Assembly: GCA_022793655.1 (NCBI GenBank)
Contig: JAAWDG010000011.1
Span: forward strand, 115,135 to 179,134
DNA: 64,000 bases
From: Clostridiales bacterium
GTDB lineage: Bacteria; Bacillota; Clostridia; Oscillospirales; CAG-272
Reading direction: 5' to 3'
Position numbers and translations under genes: made by a program. Below the pieces are notes generated by a model. That model was not told the DNA's origin. It saw nothing but the letters and a program-made list of their open reading frames with translations, and made no database searches. Positions 1,122-63,515 of the stretch are shown here, in pieces; position 1 is the stretch's first letter; each line of letters begins with the position of its first letter.

Positions 1122-1250
1122 TGGTATACTATGATAAAATAAGAACAAGCCGTATGGCTTGTTCTTAAAAAGATTGACTTGCCACCCATTAGGTGGTGAC
1201 ATTCCGGCAGAGCCGGAAACGCCAATCTTTATGGTAGCAGAAACTTTATA
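1122..1250 (+). repeat. Structured intergenic element copy E1 (hairpin-linker-hairpin-TGACA-hairpin, three-way junction)
   Basis: TGGTATACT at 1122-1130. Hairpins at 1141-1166, 1182-1196 and 1202-1218. Closing helix 1169-1176/1223-1230. 1197-1218 is 21/22 identical to 26208-26229. Confidence 0.6.
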
Positions 1251-6207: not shown

Positions 6208-6241
6208 AAAATAAGAGCAAGCTTTTGCTTGCTCTTATTTT
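6208..6241. terminator. Bidirectional terminator (XRE gene / vanT)
   Basis: aaaataagagcaagc tttt gcttgctcttatttt, with A/T runs on both sides. Confidence 0.6.
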
Positions 6242-8354
6242 ATTGAATAAATCGCTCTAATCGACTACCGAGACGACTAAGAATTTCATTTGTGATGGTA
6301 TGTGTTTTTTCGGCTAGTTCATAGGCAGAAATTTCTTGATTTTCGGAATGACCAATCAAAACAGCTGTATCGCCAGCAATTACTTGTTCGGGAATCTTGC
6401 TAATGTCAACTATGGTTAAATCCATGCAGATTTGCAAAATGGGCGCTTCATAACCATGCAGCAGCACGCGCCCGTGCGACTCACCAAGCATACGCGGCAG
6501 ACCGTCGGCATAGCCAATTGAGAGAATGGCTATTCTTTTTTCACCGTTTGCTGAAATTTGATTGCCGTACCCGGCTGTTTCGCCGTTTTGCAGTGTTTTA
6601 GTCGACGCCACACGTGCCTTTAAAGATAACACAGCCTGTAATGGTATCGGACAAGTTTCGCTGTCTTGTCGGCTGCTAAGGAGGCCGTATAGCGCAATGC
6701 CAATGCGCGCATAGTCTCCGGTGCAGTCTGGGAAATAGAGCAAGCCATAGCTTGCCTGCAAATGTGTTTTAGGAATTTTATATCTTTCTTCTCGAAGGTG
6801 TTGTAACAAATGCTGGAAGTGCTCGTTTTGTGCCAACGTTCGTGTACGGCCCTCTTGCGTGTTTTCTGCCATGCTGAAATGAGTGCATATTCCTTCAATT
6901 AACAGGTGCTTCATATTAAAAATTTGGCGGATTTCCGATCGGTTTTCAGCTGGTTCACCGAAGCGATGCATGCCTGTATCAATGCCTATGTGTACATGAT
7001 AACGTCGGCCATCTTGGTTTAGGATATGAGCATATGAGACGTCAACGATTGTCTGTATGAGCCGATAGCGCCGTAAAAGTATAAAATCTTTCGGATGGGT
7101 ATAGCCAAGTACTAAGATTTTCCTTCGAAAGCCTTGTTTACGCAGTTCTGCGCCTTCGGACGCGGTGGCGACGCAGACAATAGCGATTTCCTGCTTTTGC
7201 AGTTCTTTGGCAATCAGTGCTGCACCATGACCATACGCATTCGCTTTTAATACGGGCATAAGGGCACAATTGTCAGGCAGTTGTGCGCGAAGCGCTGCTA
7301 TGTTATGAAGCAGGGCGGTGCGGTCGAGCTCAATCCATGCCCTGCCTTTTGTCAGGACAGGTTTTGCCAGCCTTATACAAAGGTAGCTTATAGCCACAGA
7401 GAACCCGAAAGAGACAACACAAACCGCTATAAAATGAATCAAACTATTTTGAATCAATAGGTTTTGAAGCGCGGATCGTTTCGCAAGGGCTCTGACAAAG
7501 AGAATGGCAAGTGGGTGCAAAATATAAATCCACATGGACAGCAGACGGCAATACGGCAATGGTCTCACAGGAAGAGCGCATAAAAATGAAAAGAGAAGAA
7601 ACAAGACAGGAATCAAAAAAAGATACATACTGTCATGCCTTGTCTGGTGAAATTGATGCAGAAGAAGTCCCTCGCTTATTAAAAATAAAACGGAAAGAGG
7701 GAGGAAAGCGGCGCATTGCCGGATGGTAAGCGTCTGCCGATTACGAATCGCCGCGCCGAGGGTTATAAAAAATGGGGCGAAAAACAATCCGTTTCGGGTG
7801 TATGAAAAGATACGAAAGAGTGGTTGATAGAAATAATGATCAATGGGCGTACCCCTTACAAAGCCAAAATAGCTATCGCCCAATAGTCCGATCAGATAAA
7901 GGCCAAAGGTAATGAGAATGACTGGTTTTAACGGGAGGTGTTTGCATAAATAATAAACGAACAATATACCGGTTATGCAAGCAGGCAGATACCATAAATG
8001 ATAAAATGTACCGTCCCACAAAAGCATTTGAATGGCTTGGGCGATTGTCATGGGATCGAAATGACCGGCGTAAATACCAATCGGCAGATAGAGAAGGATA
8101 GCCGCGATATAGAGCAGTAGATTTTTGCGGATAAAATGCCAAGGAGAAGGGGCGCACAGGACAAAGAAACCGCTGATCATAAAAAAGAGGGGCACCGCGA
8201 TTCTTGCTATGATACGTGTCAGAATTAGATCGACAGTTTCGCCAAAACAGAGAAGCGGGCCAGTGTGAATAGCGACTACTAAAAACGCGGCAACGAGTCT
8301 GGCAAGGTCTAAAGCGCCGTAGTTTTTTGATGGATTAACGGTGCAGTGCGTCAT
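6240..8354 (-). CDS. vanT: VanT-type membrane-bound serine/alanine racemase (acyltransferase_3 membrane domain + PLP racemase)
   Basis: N-terminal LVAAFLVVAIHTGPL polytopic domain fused to an alanine-racemase-like C-terminus (VLKANAYGHGA). Last gene of the van cluster. Confidence 0.85.
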   Translation of the reverse strand: MTHCTVNPSKNYGALDLARLVAAFLVVAIHTGPLLCFGETVDLILTRIIARIAVPLFFMISGFFVLCAPSPWHFIRKNLLLYIAAILLYLPIGIYAGHFDPMTIAQAIQMLLWDGTFYHLWYLPACITGILFVYYLCKHLPLKPVILITFGLYLIGLLGDSYFGFVRGTPIDHYFYQPLFRIFSYTRNGLFFAPFFITLGAAIRNRQTLTIRQCAAFLPLSVLFLISEGLLLHQFHQTRHDSMYLFLIPVLFLLFSFLCALPVRPLPYCRLLSMWIYILHPLAILFVRALAKRSALQNLLIQNSLIHFIAVCVVSFGFSVAISYLCIRLAKPVLTKGRAWIELDRTALLHNIAALRAQLPDNCALMPVLKANAYGHGAALIAKELQKQEIAIVCVATASEGAELRKQGFRRKILVLGYTHPKDFILLRRYRLIQTIVDVSYAHILNQDGRRYHVHIGIDTGMHRFGEPAENRSEIRQIFNMKHLLIEGICTHFSMAENTQEGRTRTLAQNEHFQHLLQHLREERYKIPKTHLQASYGLLYFPDCTGDYARIGIALYGLLSSRQDSETCPIPLQAVLSLKARVASTKTLQNGETAGYGNQISANGEKRIAILSIGYADGLPRMLGESHGRVLLHGYEAPILQICMDLTIVDISKIPEQVIAGDTAVLIGHSENQEISAYELAEKTHTITNEILSRLGSRLERFIQ

Positions 8355-9123
8355 GGGTATTCCTCCATTCTGTTAACACAAAACCGTCGATGTTATTGCC
8401 AGAGATAATATATGGCTTGTCAGTGCGAACAACGATTTTTGTGTTTTGGTTTTTTGATGCCGGTATATAGGAAATGAGAATTGTTTCATGCAAATGCGTA
8501 TTGTAGATAAAGGGTTTGTTTCTTGCATCGTTTTTTAAAAATTCCATATATTCTTCAAGTGTGAATCGGTTTTGCGTTATAATGGCCGCATGCGGAATGC
8601 CAACATAGCGAAAATGCCAAGGTTCATAATCAATGTGTGTAATGAATTGCTTTTCTTTTGGATAGCGTTCAATAAATCCGAACCAGGGCGCTAATTTACG
8701 AAACACTTGACAAAGACCAGTATCAGGAAAGGCGGGACGAATGAAGTCAATAGCGCCGTCTATGGGTGTTCCAAGGTCAATGGCAAGACCTGTGTGATGT
8801 TCGCTTTCACCGGGGGCCGCTACATAGCGTTTGGTAAATGCTTCACCATGTTCGGCAACTGATTGTTTATAGAGAATCGTTTGTTCTTGGATCGAGCGCC
8901 AAGCGCTGACAGGCACAATTTCTTGCCAGCCGTTGATTTGCTGCATAAGGCTGTTCAGCAGAGCAGCCGCTCTCTTTTCTAAAAGGATGGAGGAAGCGTC
9001 TGCTGTTACAGGAACTAAGGCGGACGGATTTGAGGTAAAGGGAGTACCTTGACCAACGACAATCAAAAATCCGGTGTGTACTTGCTGGGGTGTAAGTTCA
9101 ATGATCTTTTTGCTTTCTTTCAT
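8335..9123 (-). CDS. vanXY: D,D-dipeptidase/carboxypeptidase VanXY (peptidase M15B)
   Basis: SEHHTGLAIDL (SxHxxGxAxD) and EPWHFRYVG (ExxH) zinc motifs. Overlaps vanG and vanT. Confidence 0.8.
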   Translation of the reverse strand: MKESKKIIELTPQQVHTGFLIVVGQGTPFTSNPSALVPVTADASSILLEKRAAALLNSLMQQINGWQEIVPVSAWRSIQEQTILYKQSVAEHGEAFTKRYVAAPGESEHHTGLAIDLGTPIDGAIDFIRPAFPDTGLCQVFRKLAPWFGFIERYPKEKQFITHIDYEPWHFRYVGIPHAAIITQNRFTLEEYMEFLKNDARNKPFIYNTHLHETILISYIPASKNQNTKIVVRTDKPYIISGNNIDGFVLTEWRNTHDALHR

Positions 9124-10181
9124 GACTGTGCCCCAAGCGCGGTTTCAATTACTTTTGTGATGATTTCTGTGTAGGAGTATCCCGCGGCTATCATCATTTT
9201 TGGAAAACGGCTTTTGTCGGTAAAACCAGGAATCGTATTGATTTCATTGAACAAAATGTCACCGTCAGGCGTGAGAAAAAGATCAATTCTGGCAAATCCG
9301 CGGCAGTCAAATAATTGATATAGGGCGATGGCTGTTTGCCTTATTTGTGCGGCTTGCGATTTAGTGAGGCGGGCAGGCACATGAATTTGGGCATTTTTAA
9401 GTGAATATTTGGTCTCGTAATCAAAAAATGATTTTTGTATCTCAATTTCATCGATTTCGCCAATCGTAAGAGAACATTCTGGATTCCCCATGATCGCACA
9501 GCCTAATTCAACTCCTTCTATATAAGATTCAAACACCGCTTCACAATCATACGAAAAAGCAAGTTTAGCTGCACTTGGCAAATCACGTCGATATTCCACT
9601 TTTGTGATGCCGAATGAAGAACCAGCACGAAGGGGTTTAACCATAAGGGGGTAGCCAATTTCTTCTCCGATTTTAAAAAGAGATGTTTCGTTGGTGCTTT
9701 GATGAATTAAATGGGTCCTTGGCACTTTAATGCCATGTGATAAAGCGAATTGATGGGCACGATACTTGTCCATACATAGGGCTGAACAAAGAGTGCCGCA
9801 GCCAATTAACGAAATGCCTGTTAATGCTAAAAGCCCTTGCACAGTGCCGTCCTCACCATTTTGGCCGTGCAGCAGCGGTAAGGCTGCGTCAATTTCAATC
9901 AATTGTGTTTGTTTGGCTTCTTGAACCATAATCTTATTTTGCTTTATGCCAGGCATAATGCTCACAGGTTTACAGAAAGCTGACTGCTGCCATTGATCTT
10001 GGCTGATTAGATCGATTGGTCCTGTGTATAAAAACCATTCGCCTTGTTGGGTTATTCCGATGCATATGGGATGGTACAATGTTTGATCAATATGAGAGAT
10101 GACTGAAGCAGCCGAGCTAAGAGAGACTTTGTATTCAGGCGAAGCACCGCCGAACAAAATCGCAATATTTCTTTTTTTCAT
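9120..10181 (-). CDS. vanG: D-alanine--D-serine ligase, VanG-like (ATP-grasp Ddl family)
   Basis: MKKRNIAILFGGASPEYKVSLSSAASV Ddl N-terminus and ATP-grasp C-terminus. Lies between vanRS and vanXY-vanT. Confidence 0.8.
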   Translation of the reverse strand: MKKRNIAILFGGASPEYKVSLSSAASVISHIDQTLYHPICIGITQQGEWFLYTGPIDLISQDQWQQSAFCKPVSIMPGIKQNKIMVQEAKQTQLIEIDAALPLLHGQNGEDGTVQGLLALTGISLIGCGTLCSALCMDKYRAHQFALSHGIKVPRTHLIHQSTNETSLFKIGEEIGYPLMVKPLRAGSSFGITKVEYRRDLPSAAKLAFSYDCEAVFESYIEGVELGCAIMGNPECSLTIGEIDEIEIQKSFFDYETKYSLKNAQIHVPARLTKSQAAQIRQTAIALYQLFDCRGFARIDLFLTPDGDILFNEINTIPGFTDKSRFPKMMIAAGYSYTEIITKVIETALGAQS

Positions 10182-10273
10182 TTTTATTCACCATACTTTC
10201 TATCTGTTTTTATGAAGCAGATTCATATTCTAAATATCTGTTTCGCTATTTAGCTTATTTTGAGTATAAGAAA

Positions 10274-10301
10274 AACCTCTGGTACAATCATACCAGAGGT
10301 T
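10274..10301 (-). terminator. Hairpin after vanS (terminator-like, overlaps the vanG promoter spacer)
   Basis: 11-bp stem aacctctggta/taccagaggtt. On the minus strand it is followed by tttttcttatact. Confidence 0.5.
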
Positions 10302-10350
10302 AAAAGAGAACGCTTTTTGATTTTTTCAAGGTTTTCTATTTTTTTTATTC

Positions 10351-10372
10351 TGAAATTCTTACAATTTTCTAA
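10351..10372 (-). promoter_or_regulatory. Tandem 11-bp direct repeats, candidate VanR (OmpR-type) boxes
   Basis: Minus strand reads TTAGAAAATTG TAAGAATTTCA, contiguous with 11-bp phasing, between the vanS stop and vanG. Confidence 0.35.
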
Positions 10373-10402
10373 CAAATATCGTTTTTTAGACAAAGAACCC
10401 TT

Positions 10403-11461
10403 TCAAAGGGGCAGCCGAACGGTGAAAGTGATGCTTTCGTTTTCGCTTGCCGCCGTGATTTGGCCGTGGTGCAGTTCTACAATTTCTTTGGCAATCGCAA
10501 GGCCAAGACCGGCGCCCCCGGTTGAGGTGGCGCGCGCGGCGTCTAATCTGAAAAACTGATCAAATAATCGGCCTAATTTTTCAGACGGAATTGTTTTGCC
10601 TGTGTTCTGCAGAGTAATTACTGCTTGTTCTTGTTCAGTTGTGGCTGAAAGCGTAACCATGTGATTGGCATAACTATAGGCAACCGCATTGCGTACTAAA
10701 TTATCGAAAACCCGGCCTATTTTATCTGGGTCACCGAGAATGTATAACGACTCCTCAATGTCGAGCTGCCATTGCAGACCCTTTTCGGCTAAAATAGGTT
10801 CAAATTCGCTGGCTATCTGTTTTAGCATAAAGCTGAGGTTAATGCGGCTGCGCTCTATCGTGAGATGCGTTAGGCTAAAGCGGGTAATGTCAAAAAATTC
10901 ATTTACTAAATCTTCTAATCGTTCGGCTTTGGTGAGTGCAATGCCGATATAGCGTTCCCGCAGTTCGTCGGATATTTGTTTTTCGTCCCGTAGAAGGGAA
11001 AGGTAACCAATAACGCTGGTGAGCGGTGTTTTTAAATCATGTGCTAAGTAGACAATTAGATCGTTTTTACGCTGTTCGGCCTCTTTGGTGCTGGCGGCTT
11101 GTTTGATCGCTTGTTCTCTGACTAAATTAAGCTCATCCTGCACCTCTTTTAATTCTTCAGATAAAATAATGGGCCTTTGCGATGGCTCTGCTAACTGATC
11201 AGAGGCGTCAATAATTTCGTCTAAATAGCGAAGAGGCTTTGCAATGAAGATGTAAGAGATGACGGCGCCGCCGATCAGCAAAAAGAAACTGCCCCATAAA
11301 AGAATGTTTTCTTCAAACCATTTTAGCAAGTGATAAAGGGGATTTCTGTCATGCCAGATAAACATCCTGAAAAATACGTTAGCTAACCAATAGCATACAA
11401 TAAACCCCACAACCAGCAAAAAAAGGGATAAGAGAAAGCGAAACAAAAGTTTGCGTGCCAT
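10403..11461 (-). CDS. vanS: Sensor histidine kinase VanS
   Basis: H-box YLAHDLKTPLTS and G-boxes GGAGLGLAIAKE. Start is uncertain: ATG at 11461 gives MARKLLFRFLL..., and the track GTG at 11524 overlaps vanR. Confidence 0.8.
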   Translation of the reverse strand: MARKLLFRFLLSLFLLVVGFIVCYWLANVFFRMFIWHDRNPLYHLLKWFEENILLWGSFFLLIGGAVISYIFIAKPLRYLDEIIDASDQLAEPSQRPIILSEELKEVQDELNLVREQAIKQAASTKEAEQRKNDLIVYLAHDLKTPLTSVIGYLSLLRDEKQISDELRERYIGIALTKAERLEDLVNEFFDITRFSLTHLTIERSRINLSFMLKQIASEFEPILAEKGLQWQLDIEESLYILGDPDKIGRVFDNLVRNAVAYSYANHMVTLSATTEQEQAVITLQNTGKTIPSEKLGRLFDQFFRLDAARATSTGGAGLGLAIAKEIVELHHGQITAASENESITFTVRLPL

Positions 11462-11498
11462 TTTGCTTTGCAGCTTACGCACATTATTTGTCTTTATT

Positions 11499-12188
11499 TT
11501 ATTGTTCAATCGTATACCCCACACCCCATACGGTTTTGATGTATTTTGGTTTGCGCGCCGGTTCTTTCATTTTTTCACGCAGTCTGGCGATATGAGCCAT
11601 CACGGTGTTATTGCTGTCTAGGTATTTATCGCCCCATACGGCTTCAAAGAGTTCTTCTGAGGAGACAACATGTCCTTTGCGTTCGCAAAGATACCAAAGA
11701 ATATTGAATTCAATCGGCGTTAGTGACAACTCTTCGCCGTTTAACAGGCATTTGTGGTTATCTTGACAGATATAGAGTCCTTTATGGTCATATTCAGTTG
11801 GTTGAGATTCGGTTTTGTTATAACGGGTATAACGGCGAAGCTGAGTTTTAACTCTGGCCACTAATTCAAGCGGATTAAAGGGTTTGGTCATATAATCATC
11901 GGCGCCCAGTGTGAGTCCGGTGATTTTATCAATGTCCTCAATTTTCGCTGTCAGCATAATAATAGGGAAAAGATATTTCTCTCTAATTTGCTGACAGAGT
12001 GTGAACCCGTCCAAATCTGGCAGCATGATATCTAACAGCGCTAAATCAATTGTTTCTTGCGCAAGACAGGCAAGAGCGCTTTGCGCGTTATAAAACTTAT
12101 ATACGTTAAAATTTTCATTTTTAAGATAGACTTCTATTAAATCAGCGATTTCTTTTTCGTCATCTACAACAAGAATGTTCTGGCTCAT
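11499..12188 (-). CDS. vanR: OmpR-family response regulator VanR
   Basis: Receiver LVVDDE...DLALLDIMLPDLDG plus winged-helix C-terminus TVWGVGY. RBS aaaggaa. Confidence 0.85.
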   Translation of the reverse strand: MSQNILVVDDEKEIADLIEVYLKNENFNVYKFYNAQSALACLAQETIDLALLDIMLPDLDGFTLCQQIREKYLFPIIMLTAKIEDIDKITGLTLGADDYMTKPFNPLELVARVKTQLRRYTRYNKTESQPTEYDHKGLYICQDNHKCLLNGEELSLTPIEFNILWYLCERKGHVVSSEELFEAVWGDKYLDSNNTVMAHIARLREKMKEPARKPKYIKTVWGVGYTIEQ

Positions 12189-12265
12189 AGCATGTTCCTT
12201 TCATTCATAGATGGTGTGTCTTTTGTGATAGCACATTATTAAAAGTATGGCGTTTCGGCGGGGAT

Positions 12266-12362
12266 AACATTCGGACGTTTTTAGCTATGTCAGCAGGCAG
12301 CCCTATTGGCTGCAAGGTAAACTTTCTAAGAATAACCAGATAGGGTTATTCTTATTATAGCA
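12266..12362 (-). repeat. Structured intergenic element copy E4 (in the vanR upstream region)
   Basis: Minus strand: TGCTATAAT, hairpin aagaataacc/ggttattctt, linker AGAAAGTTTACCTTG, hairpin gcagcc/ggctgc, CTGCTGACAT. 16-mer ATTCTTAGAAAGTTTA is identical to 26405-26420. Confidence 0.55.
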
Positions 12363-12587
12363 TATGTTGCAATAAATTTCGAGTTTATGTTTGCATGCTT
12401 TGCTCTTGCTGCAATAATGTTCGATTTGTTTTGGCAGTCACCAAGTAATTGATCGTATGAAAAAGAACTTGGTATGAAAATTTGCATCATGGTTTTTCAA
12501 AATCTTTTGTAAAAATACCATATCAAAAAAATTTTATAATAAGAGCGCTAAGTAAGGCATTCAGTTGATTCAAAAAACTGGATAAAA

Positions 12588-12640
12588 ATAGAAAAACCGA
12601 GTGTTCTTAATAGAATCCCAAATCCTATAAGAGCACTCGG
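12588..12640 (-). terminator. Intrinsic terminator of tRNA-Pro
   Basis: About 16-bp imperfect stem (12597-12613/12625-12640), followed on the minus strand by tttttct. Confidence 0.7.
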
Positions 12641-12642
12641 CA

Positions 12643-12718
12643 TGGTCGGAGTGACAGGATTCGAACCTGCGGCCTCAACATCCCAAATGTCGCGCGCTAC
12701 CAACTGCGCTACACCCCG
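12643..12718 (-). tRNA. tRNA-Pro (anticodon UGG), CCA encoded
   Basis: Reverse complement CGGGGTG...TTTGGGA...GGTTCGAATCCTGTCACTCCGACCA. Cloverleaf with 7-bp acceptor stem; anticodon loop is TT-TGG-GA. Confidence 0.95.
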
Positions 12719-12769: not shown

Positions 12770-12919
12770 TACACAAAAGTGCAAGTAATTTTTGATTTGT
12801 AAAAATGAAATTATAACACGAATAAGGCAGTCCGATTAGGCCAGATATTGTAAAATATGCGGTCTTGTGGTATACTTAAACGAGAAATTGATTAAATATA
12901 AGTGATTCATGAAGAATTT

Positions 12920-13010
12920 GTCAAATATGGTCGGCGTTTCTTGCGAAATGTCAGTGATTATGTTAACATAAGAATAAATCTAAAAGTTTCATCTTAGAAA
13001 ATTTGTTTTT
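12920..13010 (-). repeat. Degenerate element copy E5
   Basis: Minus strand: TTAGATTTATTC linker, ttatg/cataa hairpin, TCAC TGACATTTCG..GAAACGCCGACC. Compare E1: TGACATTCCGG...GAAACGCCAATC. Confidence 0.35.
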
Positions 13011-13167
13011 TCGCTTATATAAGCAAAATTCCAGCATAGCTGGTTGGACGAAACGCTATAAAATGATAGCATTTAGGGAAATACTATTATATTCAATTTG
13101 ATCGAATCACTTGTGGTCAAATCTTAATTTGCTACTAAGCTTTAAAATTGAATTTGGCGGAGAAAAA

Positions 13168-14664
13168 ATGATTTGTAAAAAATGCGGACAAGAAACGAAT
13201 AGCAACGATGCTTTTTGTGCTCACTGTAAAGAGCCTTTAAAAAAGAATATGATGAGTCGGGCGTTGGATACACTTAAACAAATGCCGCTTCGCAATTGGC
13301 TGTGTGTTATCATTTTAGTACTGGCGCTTGTAATTGCCGTGTGGGTTTTAGCTTATAGTTTTCGGCCAGGACCTTTTTCATCCAAAACAGTCACAATTAC
13401 TTGTGTTGAAGATGGAAAAGATACAGTGTTTTTTTATAATGATAAGCTGTTAGAGGGAACTTTTTCGGGCGTCATGGTAAATTCATCTACTTCTATGTAT
13501 GGTGATTTGCTGGTGTTTATGACCGAACAGGACGAGTTATATATGGTCAATAAAAAAGGATTGTACCTCATATCCAATAATGTAGCCGCCTATCGAATGG
13601 CTTCTTATGGCGGCGGTCTTGCTTATGTCAATTCAGAGGGAGAGCTTTTCCGTTTTACTTGCAAAAACAAAAAAACAAAACAAATTGATACAGATGTGCT
13701 CGATAGTCATATCAGCGTTTCTTCGGGCGGCGATGCAATTGCTTATCTAAAAAAAGAGGCTGATAGCGAAGTTATGTATTGCTTTTCTGGTAAAAAGACT
13801 GAGCGGTATGCTGAGGATCGAACGCCGGTGGCTGTGTCGGATGGATTAAAGCATCTTTATACAGTTGATGGATCTATGAATTTATATTATACATCCGGCG
13901 GAAAAGAGACAGCGGTTTTTCGTAACGTAGCTAATACTTTTGCATTTGATAACGATTTTTCAGATATTTTGTTTTATGCTGATTCAGGCAGTTATTTGTT
14001 TAAGCCAGGAAGTGAAGCTACACTGGTATCAGATGCAATGGTTGATTTAGTTTGTAGCGTAGAATTGGCCAGTTATAGAAGTAATCCTTCATTTTCGATG
14101 GATACTATTATCGTGTCTTATGGCATTCGTACCTTTGCTAATAAGTTTTATGCAGACATTAATCAGAATTTGCATTATGTAGGAAGAAAATATCAATCAT
14201 CTTTAATCGATACCTTGGTTTCAATGCCAATGGTCAATGATAAAGGCAGTCGTGTTTATTACGTGAAAGACTTTAATTTAGTTTCTTCCACATCAAAAGG
14301 AAAGACCAGCGTATTAGCTAAAGGCATTGCCAGTTATCATATGACAGGAGATGGCCGCTATCTATATTATATGGATCAAAACAGTGTTTTATGGGGAAAA
14401 CGAGGCAATCTGAAAGCTAAGAAGATAGCCGAAGCAATCAATATCGTTCGCCAAAGTGGCCGTGATTATTTGTTTTACACGATACAACGGGATGGTGTAA
14501 ATGACTTATATGTCATTCGCGGTGTCTCAAAACCCAAGCTCTTGTGTGAAAATGTGAGCAGTTTTTCGGCTGCTGCAGGCTCGGCTTATTATGAAGAAGC
14601 GGGCAGTTACTATTTTAGTAGTGGAAATAGTAAATTCAAAAAAATATATGCCAAAGCAAAATAA
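13168..14664 (+). CDS. Zinc-ribbon / single-TM / large extracytoplasmic repeat (propeller-like) protein
   Basis: MICKKCGQETNSNDAFCAHCKEPL, TM WLCVIILVLALVIAVWVLAY, then ~410 aa of Y/G-rich strand-like repeats. ATG at 13168 follows ggcggag; the track start at 13111 is unsupported. Confidence 0.65.
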   Translation: MICKKCGQETNSNDAFCAHCKEPLKKNMMSRALDTLKQMPLRNWLCVIILVLALVIAVWVLAYSFRPGPFSSKTVTITCVEDGKDTVFFYNDKLLEGTFSGVMVNSSTSMYGDLLVFMTEQDELYMVNKKGLYLISNNVAAYRMASYGGGLAYVNSEGELFRFTCKNKKTKQIDTDVLDSHISVSSGGDAIAYLKKEADSEVMYCFSGKKTERYAEDRTPVAVSDGLKHLYTVDGSMNLYYTSGGKETAVFRNVANTFAFDNDFSDILFYADSGSYLFKPGSEATLVSDAMVDLVCSVELASYRSNPSFSMDTIIVSYGIRTFANKFYADINQNLHYVGRKYQSSLIDTLVSMPMVNDKGSRVYYVKDFNLVSSTSKGKTSVLAKGIASYHMTGDGRYLYYMDQNSVLWGKRGNLKAKKIAEAINIVRQSGRDYLFYTIQRDGVNDLYVIRGVSKPKLLCENVSSFSAAAGSAYYEEAGSYYFSSGNSKFKKIYAKAK

Positions 14665-26084: not shown

Positions 26085-26143
26085 TTGAATGATTATGCCT
26101 TTCTTTGCATCTGTGTCAACAGACACAAAATTTTATACGTCTT

Positions 26144-26312
26144 TGGTGTAATGAAACAAAATAAAATAGAGATTTGTTTCTAAAATTTATCTTGTCCCCA
26201 TAAGGAATGACATTCCGGCAGAGCCAGAACCGATAAACTTTGAGGTATTGGACTTTTTGTGATATAACGAAGACACCATGAAACGAGTGCGAACATAGCA
26301 AGGTGTCTTTTT
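26144..26312 (+). ncRNA. Element copy E2 with its own -10 box and terminator (candidate ~155-nt sRNA)
   Basis: TGGTGTAAT at 26144-26152. Hairpin 26153-26180. Linker TAAAATTTATCTTG. TGACATTCCGGCAGAGCCAGAA. Closing helix 26182-26191/26232-26241. agacacc...ggtgtct+ttttt at 26271-26312. Confidence 0.45.
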
Positions 26313-26352: not shown

Positions 26353-26460
26353 GGTGTAATACAAGGAAATCCACGGGCTATCTATAAGAATAGCCCTCAC
26401 GGGCATTCTTAGAAAGTTTATCTTTTGGCTTTGCCAATTTGACGGAATGTCGTGCTGTGA
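26353..26460 (+). repeat. Element copy E3
   Basis: GGTGTAAT at 26353-26360. Hairpin aagaat(a)gccc/gggcattctt at 26386-26410. AGAAAGTTTATC. Hairpin ttggc/gccaa at 26425-26437. TTTGACGGAATGTC. Confidence 0.5.
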
Positions 26461-26510
26461 GAAAACTGAAAAATTATGGAATCATATGAATTGCAGTGTT
26501 TAAAAGTCAA

Positions 26511-50734: not shown

Positions 50735-50924
50735 TTTTTCCTTGTTTTTTCTTTTCATACTTCCTATAAATTGTAATAAATTTTCACAATTTAATTTTTA
50801 TATGTCATTCATTGTTTTGATAAGCGATGTTCCAGCAGAGCTGGGACGATCCAATATTTCGATACAAATCATTTGAATCGATACAATTGCTTTTTATTAT
50901 AAACGATAAAAATGAATATTTCTA

Positions 50925-63481: not shown

Positions 63482-63515
63482 AAAAGTTTCTGCTTTAAAG
63501 CAGAAACTTTTTTTA
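63482..63515 (+). terminator. Intrinsic terminator
   Basis: aaaagtttctgc/gcagaaactttt stem followed by ttttt. Confidence 0.8.

Follow-up and report, generated by a model that had tools for sequence, protein, structure and literature searches.

The element studied here, hereafter c1, lies between an Amidase_6 gene and an operon encoding an esterase, a PapA_C-like acyltransferase and a DUF6320 protein, in a 64-kb stretch of DNA from an uncultured Clostridiales bacterium (the window, i.e., the whole of the sequence analysed, 64,000 nucleotides). Gene context was taken from a Pfam annotation of the whole window, whose genes are ordinary chromosomal ones and which contains no annotated transposase, integrase or HUH gene. 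The components named in the preliminary description (extended -10, hairpins, linker parts, closing helix) were all recovered in place, and the 11-bp hairpin aagaacaagcc/ggcttgttctt (1141-1166) reaches 12 bp when the pair T1140-A1167 is counted. Together with the repeats that flank it, c1 reads as follows.

1122-1130, plus strand: extended -10 (TGGTATACT) of the esterase operon promoter, owned by the host and not part of the element
1134-1142: left copy of a 9-nt direct repeat (ATAAAATAA), a candidate target-site duplication
1140-1167: P0 of c1, a perfect 12-bp hairpin (TAAGAACAAGCC-GTAT-GGCTTGTTCTTA)
1143-1250: segment of 108 nt gained relative to the closest relative, lying between both direct repeats
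1169-1230: three-way junction of c1 (P1, P2, TGACA, P3)
1169-1178 with 1221-1230: P1, including aaagattg (1169-1176) and caatcttt (1223-1230)
1182-1186 with 1192-1196: P2 (ccacc/ggtgg)
1197-1201: TGACA strand
1202-1208 with 1212-1218: P3 (ttccggc/gccggaa)
1251-1259: right copy of the direct repeat (ATAAAATAA)

The minimum free energy structure of the region 1137-1235 (RNAfold) is exactly the P0 hairpin followed by the three-way junction. With P0 included, c1 folds at -44.1 kcal/mol, compared with -20.5 +/- 3.0 kcal/mol for dinucleotide shuffles (z -7.98; 0/200 shuffles as good), P0 alone accounting for a fold of -17.0 kcal/mol. Taken alone, the junction is the minimum free energy structure on both strands, at -26.3 kcal/mol (z -5.1) on the plus strand and -29.7 kcal/mol (z -5.25) on the minus strand.

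A second copy, c2, sits in tandem with a more degenerate one (c4, below) between a parE-like gene and addB, and is itself followed by a terminator-like hairpin.

26153-26180: P0 of c2 (GAAACAAA, 12-nt loop, TTTGTTTC)
26181-26245: three-way junction of c2 (P1 26182-26191 with 26232-26241; core 26208-26229)
26270-26312, plus strand: terminator-like hairpin 3' of c2 (GAAGACACC...GGTGTCTTTTT)

The 5' hairpin of c2 had been overlooked previously, while what had been reported of the shared core was confirmed: 1197-1218 and 26208-26229 agree at 21/22 positions, and the closing helix of c2 (AAAATTTATC/GATAAACTTT), said to be complementary, does pair, at 9/10 positions. An 18-mer expected 0.00 times in the window, TGACATTCCGGCAGAGCC, is found there at 1197 and 26208 and nowhere else. 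Between c1 and c2, 18/18 core positions are identical, and 30/47 positions elsewhere. The compensatory pattern that had been proposed is likewise there, with two double changes in P1 of c2 relative to c1 and a third added by P2, which brings the pairs altered on both sides to three. In an alignment of c1 and c2 made by hand and N-padded to hold register, pairing holds in 90.7% of the cells and falls to 26-51% once the partners are slid. A two-sequence shuffle control, weak at n=2, reached the observed pairing in 16/500 cases and the covariation score in 64/500.

That the conservation of the core is not protein-coding had been argued from a difference in reading frame between the minus-strand ORFs that cross the two copies. 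The conclusion stands but the argument needs correcting, as a different minus-strand ORF, 26180-26296, reads the core in frame with 1037-1225, and both contain ALPECH, the translated core. Apart from ALPECH, the crossing short ORFs differ in their starts, stops and remainder; the conservation being limited to this peptide, we rejected protein coding as an explanation of the core. Moreover, the short ORFs of 6-12 codons found downstream of each copy show no conservation between copies. As for the hairpin at 26270-26312, it consists of 9 bp with a large loop, followed by TTTTT, both flanking genes being on the minus strand; a simple terminator scan does not list it, its loop being above the limit of the scan, and it was read directly, then folded. 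A plus-strand transcript of ~150 nt containing c2 could be bounded by this hairpin and by TGGTGTAAT at 26144-26152.

Further copies were recognised elsewhere in the window, which bring the family to five copies, possibly six, in 64 kb.

12237-12355, minus strand: c3, upstream of a VanR-like response regulator gene (nhmmer E 9e-23 as a model member)
12976-13056, plus strand: c5, with a degenerate P0, P2, a P3 reading TTCCAGC-ATA-GCTGG (compensatory change), then GAAACGC
26385-26482, plus strand: c4, in tandem with c2, with P0 and P2 retained and the remainder degenerate
50829-50860, plus strand: possible partial sixth copy (TTCCAGCAGAGCTGGGACGATCCAATATTT), with P3, the junction strand and the 3' arm of P1

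The order common to the family is P0, AG/AA, AAAG(A/T)TT, CTTG, P2, TGACA, P3, GAAACGC and the 3' arm of P1. In c3, it takes the form of P0, a weak P1, P2, TGACA, a 33-nt insert replacing P3, and GAAACGCC. The copies c3 and c4 have the 16-mer ATTCTTAGAAAGTTTA in common and both start with a TAAGAAT-type hairpin and linker, a likeness first spotted by eye, while c5 was recovered at E 4.6e-4 by a profile of c1-c4 from which it had been left out. For the sixth candidate, the local alignment to c1 is borderline (z 3.3), and the covariance model of the junction (R1) matches its P3 part at 11.7 bits. What had looked like an inverted third copy at 26413-26460 proved to be the 5' part of c4, oriented like c2. 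A P0-type hairpin with a covarying interior is found in c2-c5 as well as in c1, and preservation ranges from the perfect helices of c1 to the degenerate c4, which has lost the junction fold (z -0.16). Among the window copies, the complete junction is confined to c1 and c2: run over the whole window with filters off, R1 gives them 96 and 79 bits, respectively, and the next best match 15.7 bits. The copies c3-c5 are therefore related to c1 and c2 by sequence and not by the full fold. Their settings differ too, c3 lying upstream of a minus-strand vanG-type cluster and c5 inside the ~285-nt 5' UTR of a 498-aa protein of unknown function, and the genes next to the copies have no evident function in common.

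In a curated table of the four helices, 117/130 cells are Watson-Crick pairs (90%), and no helix is without a double compensatory change. As such changes affect all four helices, self-complementarity is under selection, at least in the lineages giving rise to the copies. The best-conserved parts are the unpaired junction strands CTTG, TGACA and GAAACGC together with the P3 hairpin, while the helices covary, a combination more typical of functional RNA than of neutrally decaying repeats. The same table bears on a purely DNA-level explanation, in which a dimeric transcription factor would bind one of the palindromes, P3 (TTCCGGC-N3-GCCGGAA) or P0 (TAAGAAYA...TRTTCTTA), as its operator. Such sites are palindromic and their orientation would be irrelevant, c1 lies just past a promoter, and c1 and c2 have the same P3 core; yet the interiors of P0, P2 and P3 vary and stay self-complementary (CCGGC/GCCGG vs CCAGC/GCTGG), which speaks for the folding of a strand and against the recognition of an invariant sequence. 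P0-type hairpins also serve as ordinary terminators in the window, and P0 agrees with the published VanR box YCGTANGAAAWT at only 7-8/12 positions, too poor a match for a VanR operator. A CodY operator in P0 (11/15 against the CodY motif) was found unconvincing too. Altogether, we hold an operator to be highly improbable.

Which strand carries the structure is a separate matter. On the minus strand, five A.C mismatches of the plus strand turn into G.U wobbles, and two G.U pairs favour the other strand, a tally (5 vs 2 cells) that is not significant and from which no strand was chosen. The minus strand folds better: P1 has 10 bp there in both c1 and c2, and c2 adopts the junction fold at -19.4 kcal/mol (z -3.4), compared with only -9.9 kcal/mol (z -1.3) on the plus strand. 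Furthermore, the terminator scan accepts P0 of c1 solely on the minus strand, where TTTTATCATA comes after the hairpin, and TGATATAAA at 1272-1264 could be an extended -10. These observations would suit a set of genes for small RNAs encoded by the opposite strand, the junction being transcribed ahead of P0, which would serve as intrinsic terminator; the RNA of c1 would measure ~120 nt and run on the minus strand from ~1257 to ~1135. Against this, P0 of c2-c5 is devoid of a U tract on either strand, hence also in the orientation required, a convincing promoter is missing upstream of c2 and c3 in that orientation, and three of the RNAs would have to start within the 5' regions of divergent genes; we consider such genes quite unlikely. 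The setting of the copies favours the plus-like strand instead, on which c1, c3 and c5 are sense-oriented in 5' regions, ~50-120 nt from the start of a gene, and on which c1 would be transcribed from the conserved promoter. Both trends could be reconciled if a 5' UTR tolerated the element only when turned so that P0 fails to terminate transcription, while the other orientation would be harmless between co-directional genes (c2, c4 and the sixth candidate).

The earlier failure to assign c1 to a known family was upheld by Rfam 15, which gave no family either at gathering score or at a permissive E-value. At gathering score, the whole window yields two tRNAs only, and local searches at E<=10 (c1, c2) and E<=1 (c3, c5) return chance matches of 7-26 bits, against thresholds of 40-115 bits. 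The exact 18-mer core has 13 matches in 185,579 species genomes and 20 in JGI metagenomes, numbers near chance expectation, and 0 in IMG/VR viral contigs; the flanking features are absent from all 13 genome and 20 metagenome matches. As these scans used the exact 18-mer only, diverged relatives would escape them, and it is among the collections scanned in this way that the junction is found in this genome alone. Sequencing run SRR11195283 has a contig identical to the present one. For the 16-mer of c3 and c4, viral contigs give more than 120 AT-rich chance matches, none of which is fitted by the family profile, and a BLAST of c1 against plasmids and phages returns short AT-rich chance matches only. 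The preliminary description had named the lack of further copies or of supported covariation as grounds for abandoning its reading, and half of this applies: no copy of the core was seen outside the window in the collections searched, and the covariation between c1 and c2 is suggestive, not statistically firm.

Conserved junction strands, covarying helices, a very stable fold and the lack of an Rfam family are also what one would lean on to regard the junction core (P1, P2, P3, with the invariant CUUG, UGACAUUCCGGCAGAGCC and GAAMCG strands) as an undescribed class of functional RNA riding a mobile repeat, be it a protein- or ligand-binding domain or a self-cleaving ribozyme. Hammerhead and twister ribozymes often travel on mobile repeats; a hammerhead was rejected by eye, its core CUGANGA/GAAA not fitting the junction strands. 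We rate this class as decidedly unlikely, and a similarly slight part of our total confidence overlaps with the junction as a new functional motif. If it were one, c1 and c2, as the two complete copies, would be the first representatives of a new class.

In the relative L018, whose esterase is 91% identical, a 38-nt stretch (GATTTGCTAATTTTATTAATAAATCGGTGGTATACTAT) is identical through the extended -10, so that L018 carries TGGTATACT without the element; L019 (esterase 80% identical) carries TGGTATAAT, also without the element, its counterpart of the 38-nt stretch being GGTGGTATAAT. The extended -10, which had been counted among the parts of c1, is thus present at 1122-1130 but does not belong to the element: since it is kept in relatives that lack c1, the promoter is that of the host operon. 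The esterase leader of L018 is ~106 nt shorter than here and its structure is no better than shuffles (z +1.7). Once 1143-1259 is removed, the sequence here measures 187 nt, vs 189 nt in L018, where the site holds a single ATTAAAATGA. A flanking repeat as long as the 9-nt ATAAAATAA arises in 8/500 shuffles, with the caveat that the c1 repeat is AT-rich and that the flanks of c2-c5 show nothing beyond chance. On this evidence, c1 looks like an insertion with target duplication.

At the addB locus (tag HFE77_04185), the spacer between the parE-like gene and addB measures 423 bp here, vs 145, 64 and 1 bp in relatives whose AddB is 86%, 68% and 58% identical, the first being the sister MAG (GCA_022791195.1), and the element is absent from the regions upstream of addB in L015, L016 and L017. 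Both c2 and c4 lie inside the spacer gain, antisense to the two minus-strand genes. An interpretation of c2 as an att site (attL/attR) of a 25-kb island was rejected, because the parE-like gene and addB on either side of it keep their synteny in three relatives; c2 does not mark the edge of an island. Altogether, R1 has no match in 86 kb of relatives, and the element is absent at both orthologous sites that allow a clean comparison (esterase and addB). At the c5 locus, the promoter and both flanks are kept in the sister MAG, in which the position of c5 is occupied by a different multi-hairpin segment with a weak, opposite-orientation likeness to the family (E 0.008, z 3.4); the c5 site is old and unstable.

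These comparisons weigh on the function first proposed for c1, a dedicated leader of the esterase operon, which is not supported: the L018 and L019 leaders keep the promoter without the element, and c2 is antisense between minus-strand genes, inside an insertion that three relatives are without. In a broader form, the copies would be cis-regulatory leaders read from the plus-like strand, of recent origin and restricted to this lineage; their 5' UTR hairpin and junction, on binding a protein or small molecule, would regulate the genes downstream, namely the esterase operon, vanRS and the gene of the 498-aa protein. The sense orientation of c1, c3 and c5 close to gene starts, the start of c1 ~10 nt past a promoter conserved in relatives, that of c3 directly past a promoter-like TCGAAA-17-TATAAT with TG before it, the conserved junction strands with covarying helices and the riboswitch-like position of the plus-strand terminator-like hairpin after c2 would all agree with such a leader. 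However, besides the orthologous esterase leaders without the element, there is no plus-strand gene downstream of c2 and c4, the folds of the full c1, c3 and c5 leaders show no shared expression platform, the full junction exists in c1 and c2 only, the neighbouring genes are without evident common function, and the predicted start site for c3 falls within the 5' arm of P0. The leader in this broader form thus seems unlikely to us.

The preliminary description had also mentioned a structured repeat family, an alternative strengthened by five to six copies beside unrelated genes, compensatory changes in four helices and the Rfam blank. With moderate confidence, we regard c1 as a member of a lineage-specific family of interspersed intergenic repeats, bcr1/MITE-like, hairpin-rich and ~100-120 nt long. 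The weight of evidence favours this reading through several copies by unrelated genes, gains at two loci (one with a clean footprint), a range from perfect to degenerate copies, and compensatory changes; as expected of interspersed repeats, dispersed copies occur within 64 kb and two loci occupied here are empty in relatives. Sequence comparison shows that a 108-nt unit (P0, the three-way junction and a 20-nt tail) was gained in this lineage. The esterase promoter was there before it, and the unit lies a few bases past the predicted start site of that promoter, with an apparent duplication of a 9-nt AT-rich target. Related copies were gained between the parE-like gene and addB, and the copies near the tRNA-Pro gene are older and partly decayed.

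Several points weigh against the repeat reading: no terminal inverted repeats, no transposase in the window, a direct repeat at c1 only, a conservation resembling that of functional RNA, and the sense orientation of c1, c3 and c5 in 5' regions. The ends of the insert (GAACAAGCC... and ...GAAACTTTATA) are not complementary, P1 being the only long-range inverted repeat. As neither terminal inverted repeats nor a cognate transposase were seen in the window, the element is not a classical MITE. Its structure might serve its own propagation, the hairpin being recognised by a trans-acting enzyme encoded elsewhere; alternatively, it might serve the tolerance or function of the element once transcribed. 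Judging from its position past the conserved promoter, c1 would be transcribed as the first ~110 nt of the esterase/acyltransferase/DUF6320 mRNA, which would open with a 5'-proximal hairpin of -17 kcal/mol, then a junction of about -25 kcal/mol. With regard to mRNA decay in Firmicutes, such 5' structure is expected to stabilise the message and not to sense a ligand.

If the repeat reading is correct, what looks like a textbook leader RNA can be a recently inserted repeat: the promoter, the stable junction, the compensatory changes and the database blank were all present, and only the empty orthologous sites exposed the insertion. It would also extend the record of structured repeat families to an uncultured Clostridiales lineage of gut type; for this group, to our knowledge, such elements are barely catalogued. 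The insertion would have put ~110 nt of very stable structure onto the 5' end of the esterase/acyltransferase mRNA and split the parE-like/addB pair, so that the expression of those genes may have changed.

On the repeat reading, the element would be of a kind already known (bcr1, BOX, SPRITE, Correia). In the Bacillus cereus group, bcr1 is ~155 bp long, flanked by direct repeats, strain-variable in distribution and transcribed, its branched structure being kept by compensatory changes (PMC3184786). Like bcr1 and the other group A repeats described there (~100-155 bp), the present family is intergenic, exists in many copies and differs in position between close relatives; as with bcr1, a short AT-rich direct repeat is seen at the flanks, stability varies from copy to copy, a transposase is not known, and branched independent stem-loops show compensatory base changes, as the helix table and the slid controls bear out here (PMC3184786). 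The differences are that no sequence similarity to bcr1 is established, that the host is an uncultured Clostridiales, that every bcr1 copy has a 5-bp repeat whereas a 9-nt repeat flanks one copy only here, and that bcr1 is transcribed whereas the transcription of c1 is deduced from its position past a conserved promoter. Pneumococcal SPRITE and BOX and neisserial Correia elements are likewise small structured repeats near genes; SPRITE can carry terminator-like hairpins, and Correia and BOX can join 5' UTRs and alter expression (PMC3184786). The family resembles BOX in being modular with a variable middle, the insert of c3 recalling the variable number of boxB (PMC3184786). It differs from Correia and RUP, which have terminal inverted repeats and TA duplications, none of which was found here, and from SPRITE, which is essentially one terminator hairpin where the present element combines a hairpin with a three-way junction. 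With three-way-junction riboswitches and leaders, it has in common a 5' UTR site, two hairpins enclosed by a closing helix, short junction strands that are conserved, and covarying helices, but it differs from them by the lack of an Rfam match, its absence at orthologous loci, the lack of a shared expression platform in the folded c1, c3 and c5 leaders, its unrelated neighbours and the existence of copies without a downstream gene. Cozzuto et al. (2008) reported 92 families of stem-loop sequences in 40 genomes, two thirds of them intergenic and with a common structure (PMC2267715); ours is likewise a genome-specific set of repeated intergenic sequences with a common predicted secondary structure, from a lineage outside that survey. 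Finally, REP/RAYT palindromes are GC-rich and 20-40 bp long, with a GTAG or CGTC tetranucleotide at their head (PMC3733652); they were rejected as a model, given a unit of ~110 nt with four helices and GTAG/CGTC heading no hairpin consistently across copies.

A few observations were made beside the copies. Hairpins of the form TAAGARC...GYTCTTA, like P0, stand at gene ends at 6212-6237, between convergent HTH_3 and VanT-like genes, and at 12583-12609, just past the tRNA-Pro gene; the hairpin module of the repeat thus resembles the ordinary terminators of this genome. Another perfect hairpin, of 11 bp (AAAGTTTCTGC-TTTAA-GCAGAAACTTT), stands at 63483-63510, past a histidine-kinase gene and followed by TTTTT. 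Its 3' arm has 12 nt identical to the tail of c1 (AGCAGAAACTTT, 1236-1247), probably a coincidence, as the E-value is at chance level.

Directly upstream of addB, a near-consensus promoter (TTGACA-16 nt-CATAAT, 11/12) is found at 26092-26119 on the minus strand. Its counterpart is weaker in relatives (TCGGCA...TATCCT in L015), in which the gap between the parE-like gene and addB is 1-145 bp, and addB may have gained a promoter of its own along with the insertion of c2 and c4. The gene of the 498-aa protein has a long 5' UTR (12848-13168; 9665-10000 in L041, from the sister MAG), with a promoter TTGTAA-17 nt-TATACT preceded by TG; this 5' UTR is mostly conserved in the sister MAG, with the exception of the c5 segment. 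The tRNA-Pro(TGG) gene (12643-12718) has the van cluster alongside in this genome, while its surroundings in the sister MAG (L041 1-9530) comprise two phage-type integrases, a DNA methylase, an NgoFVII-type restriction enzyme and a Z1-domain protein. The tRNA-Pro gene resembles a hot spot for integration, and the cluster beside it may be an island in its own right.

The van cluster, which resembles vanG-type (D-Ala-D-Ser) vancomycin resistance, spans 6240-12188 on the minus strand.

12188-11499, minus strand: OmpR-type response regulator
11524-10403, minus strand: histidine kinase
10181-9120, minus strand: homologue of D-Ala-D-Ala ligase
9123-8335, minus strand: VanY
8354-6240, minus strand: VanT-like fusion of an acyltransferase domain and an alanine-racemase domain

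In the spacer between the kinase and ligase genes (~10375-10350, minus strand), TTGTTAGAAAAT and TTGTAAGAATTT form adjacent direct repeats 11 bp apart, each agreeing at 10/12 positions with the published VanR box cited above as a poor match to P0 (PMC4405338), and this site is probably the inducible resistance promoter.
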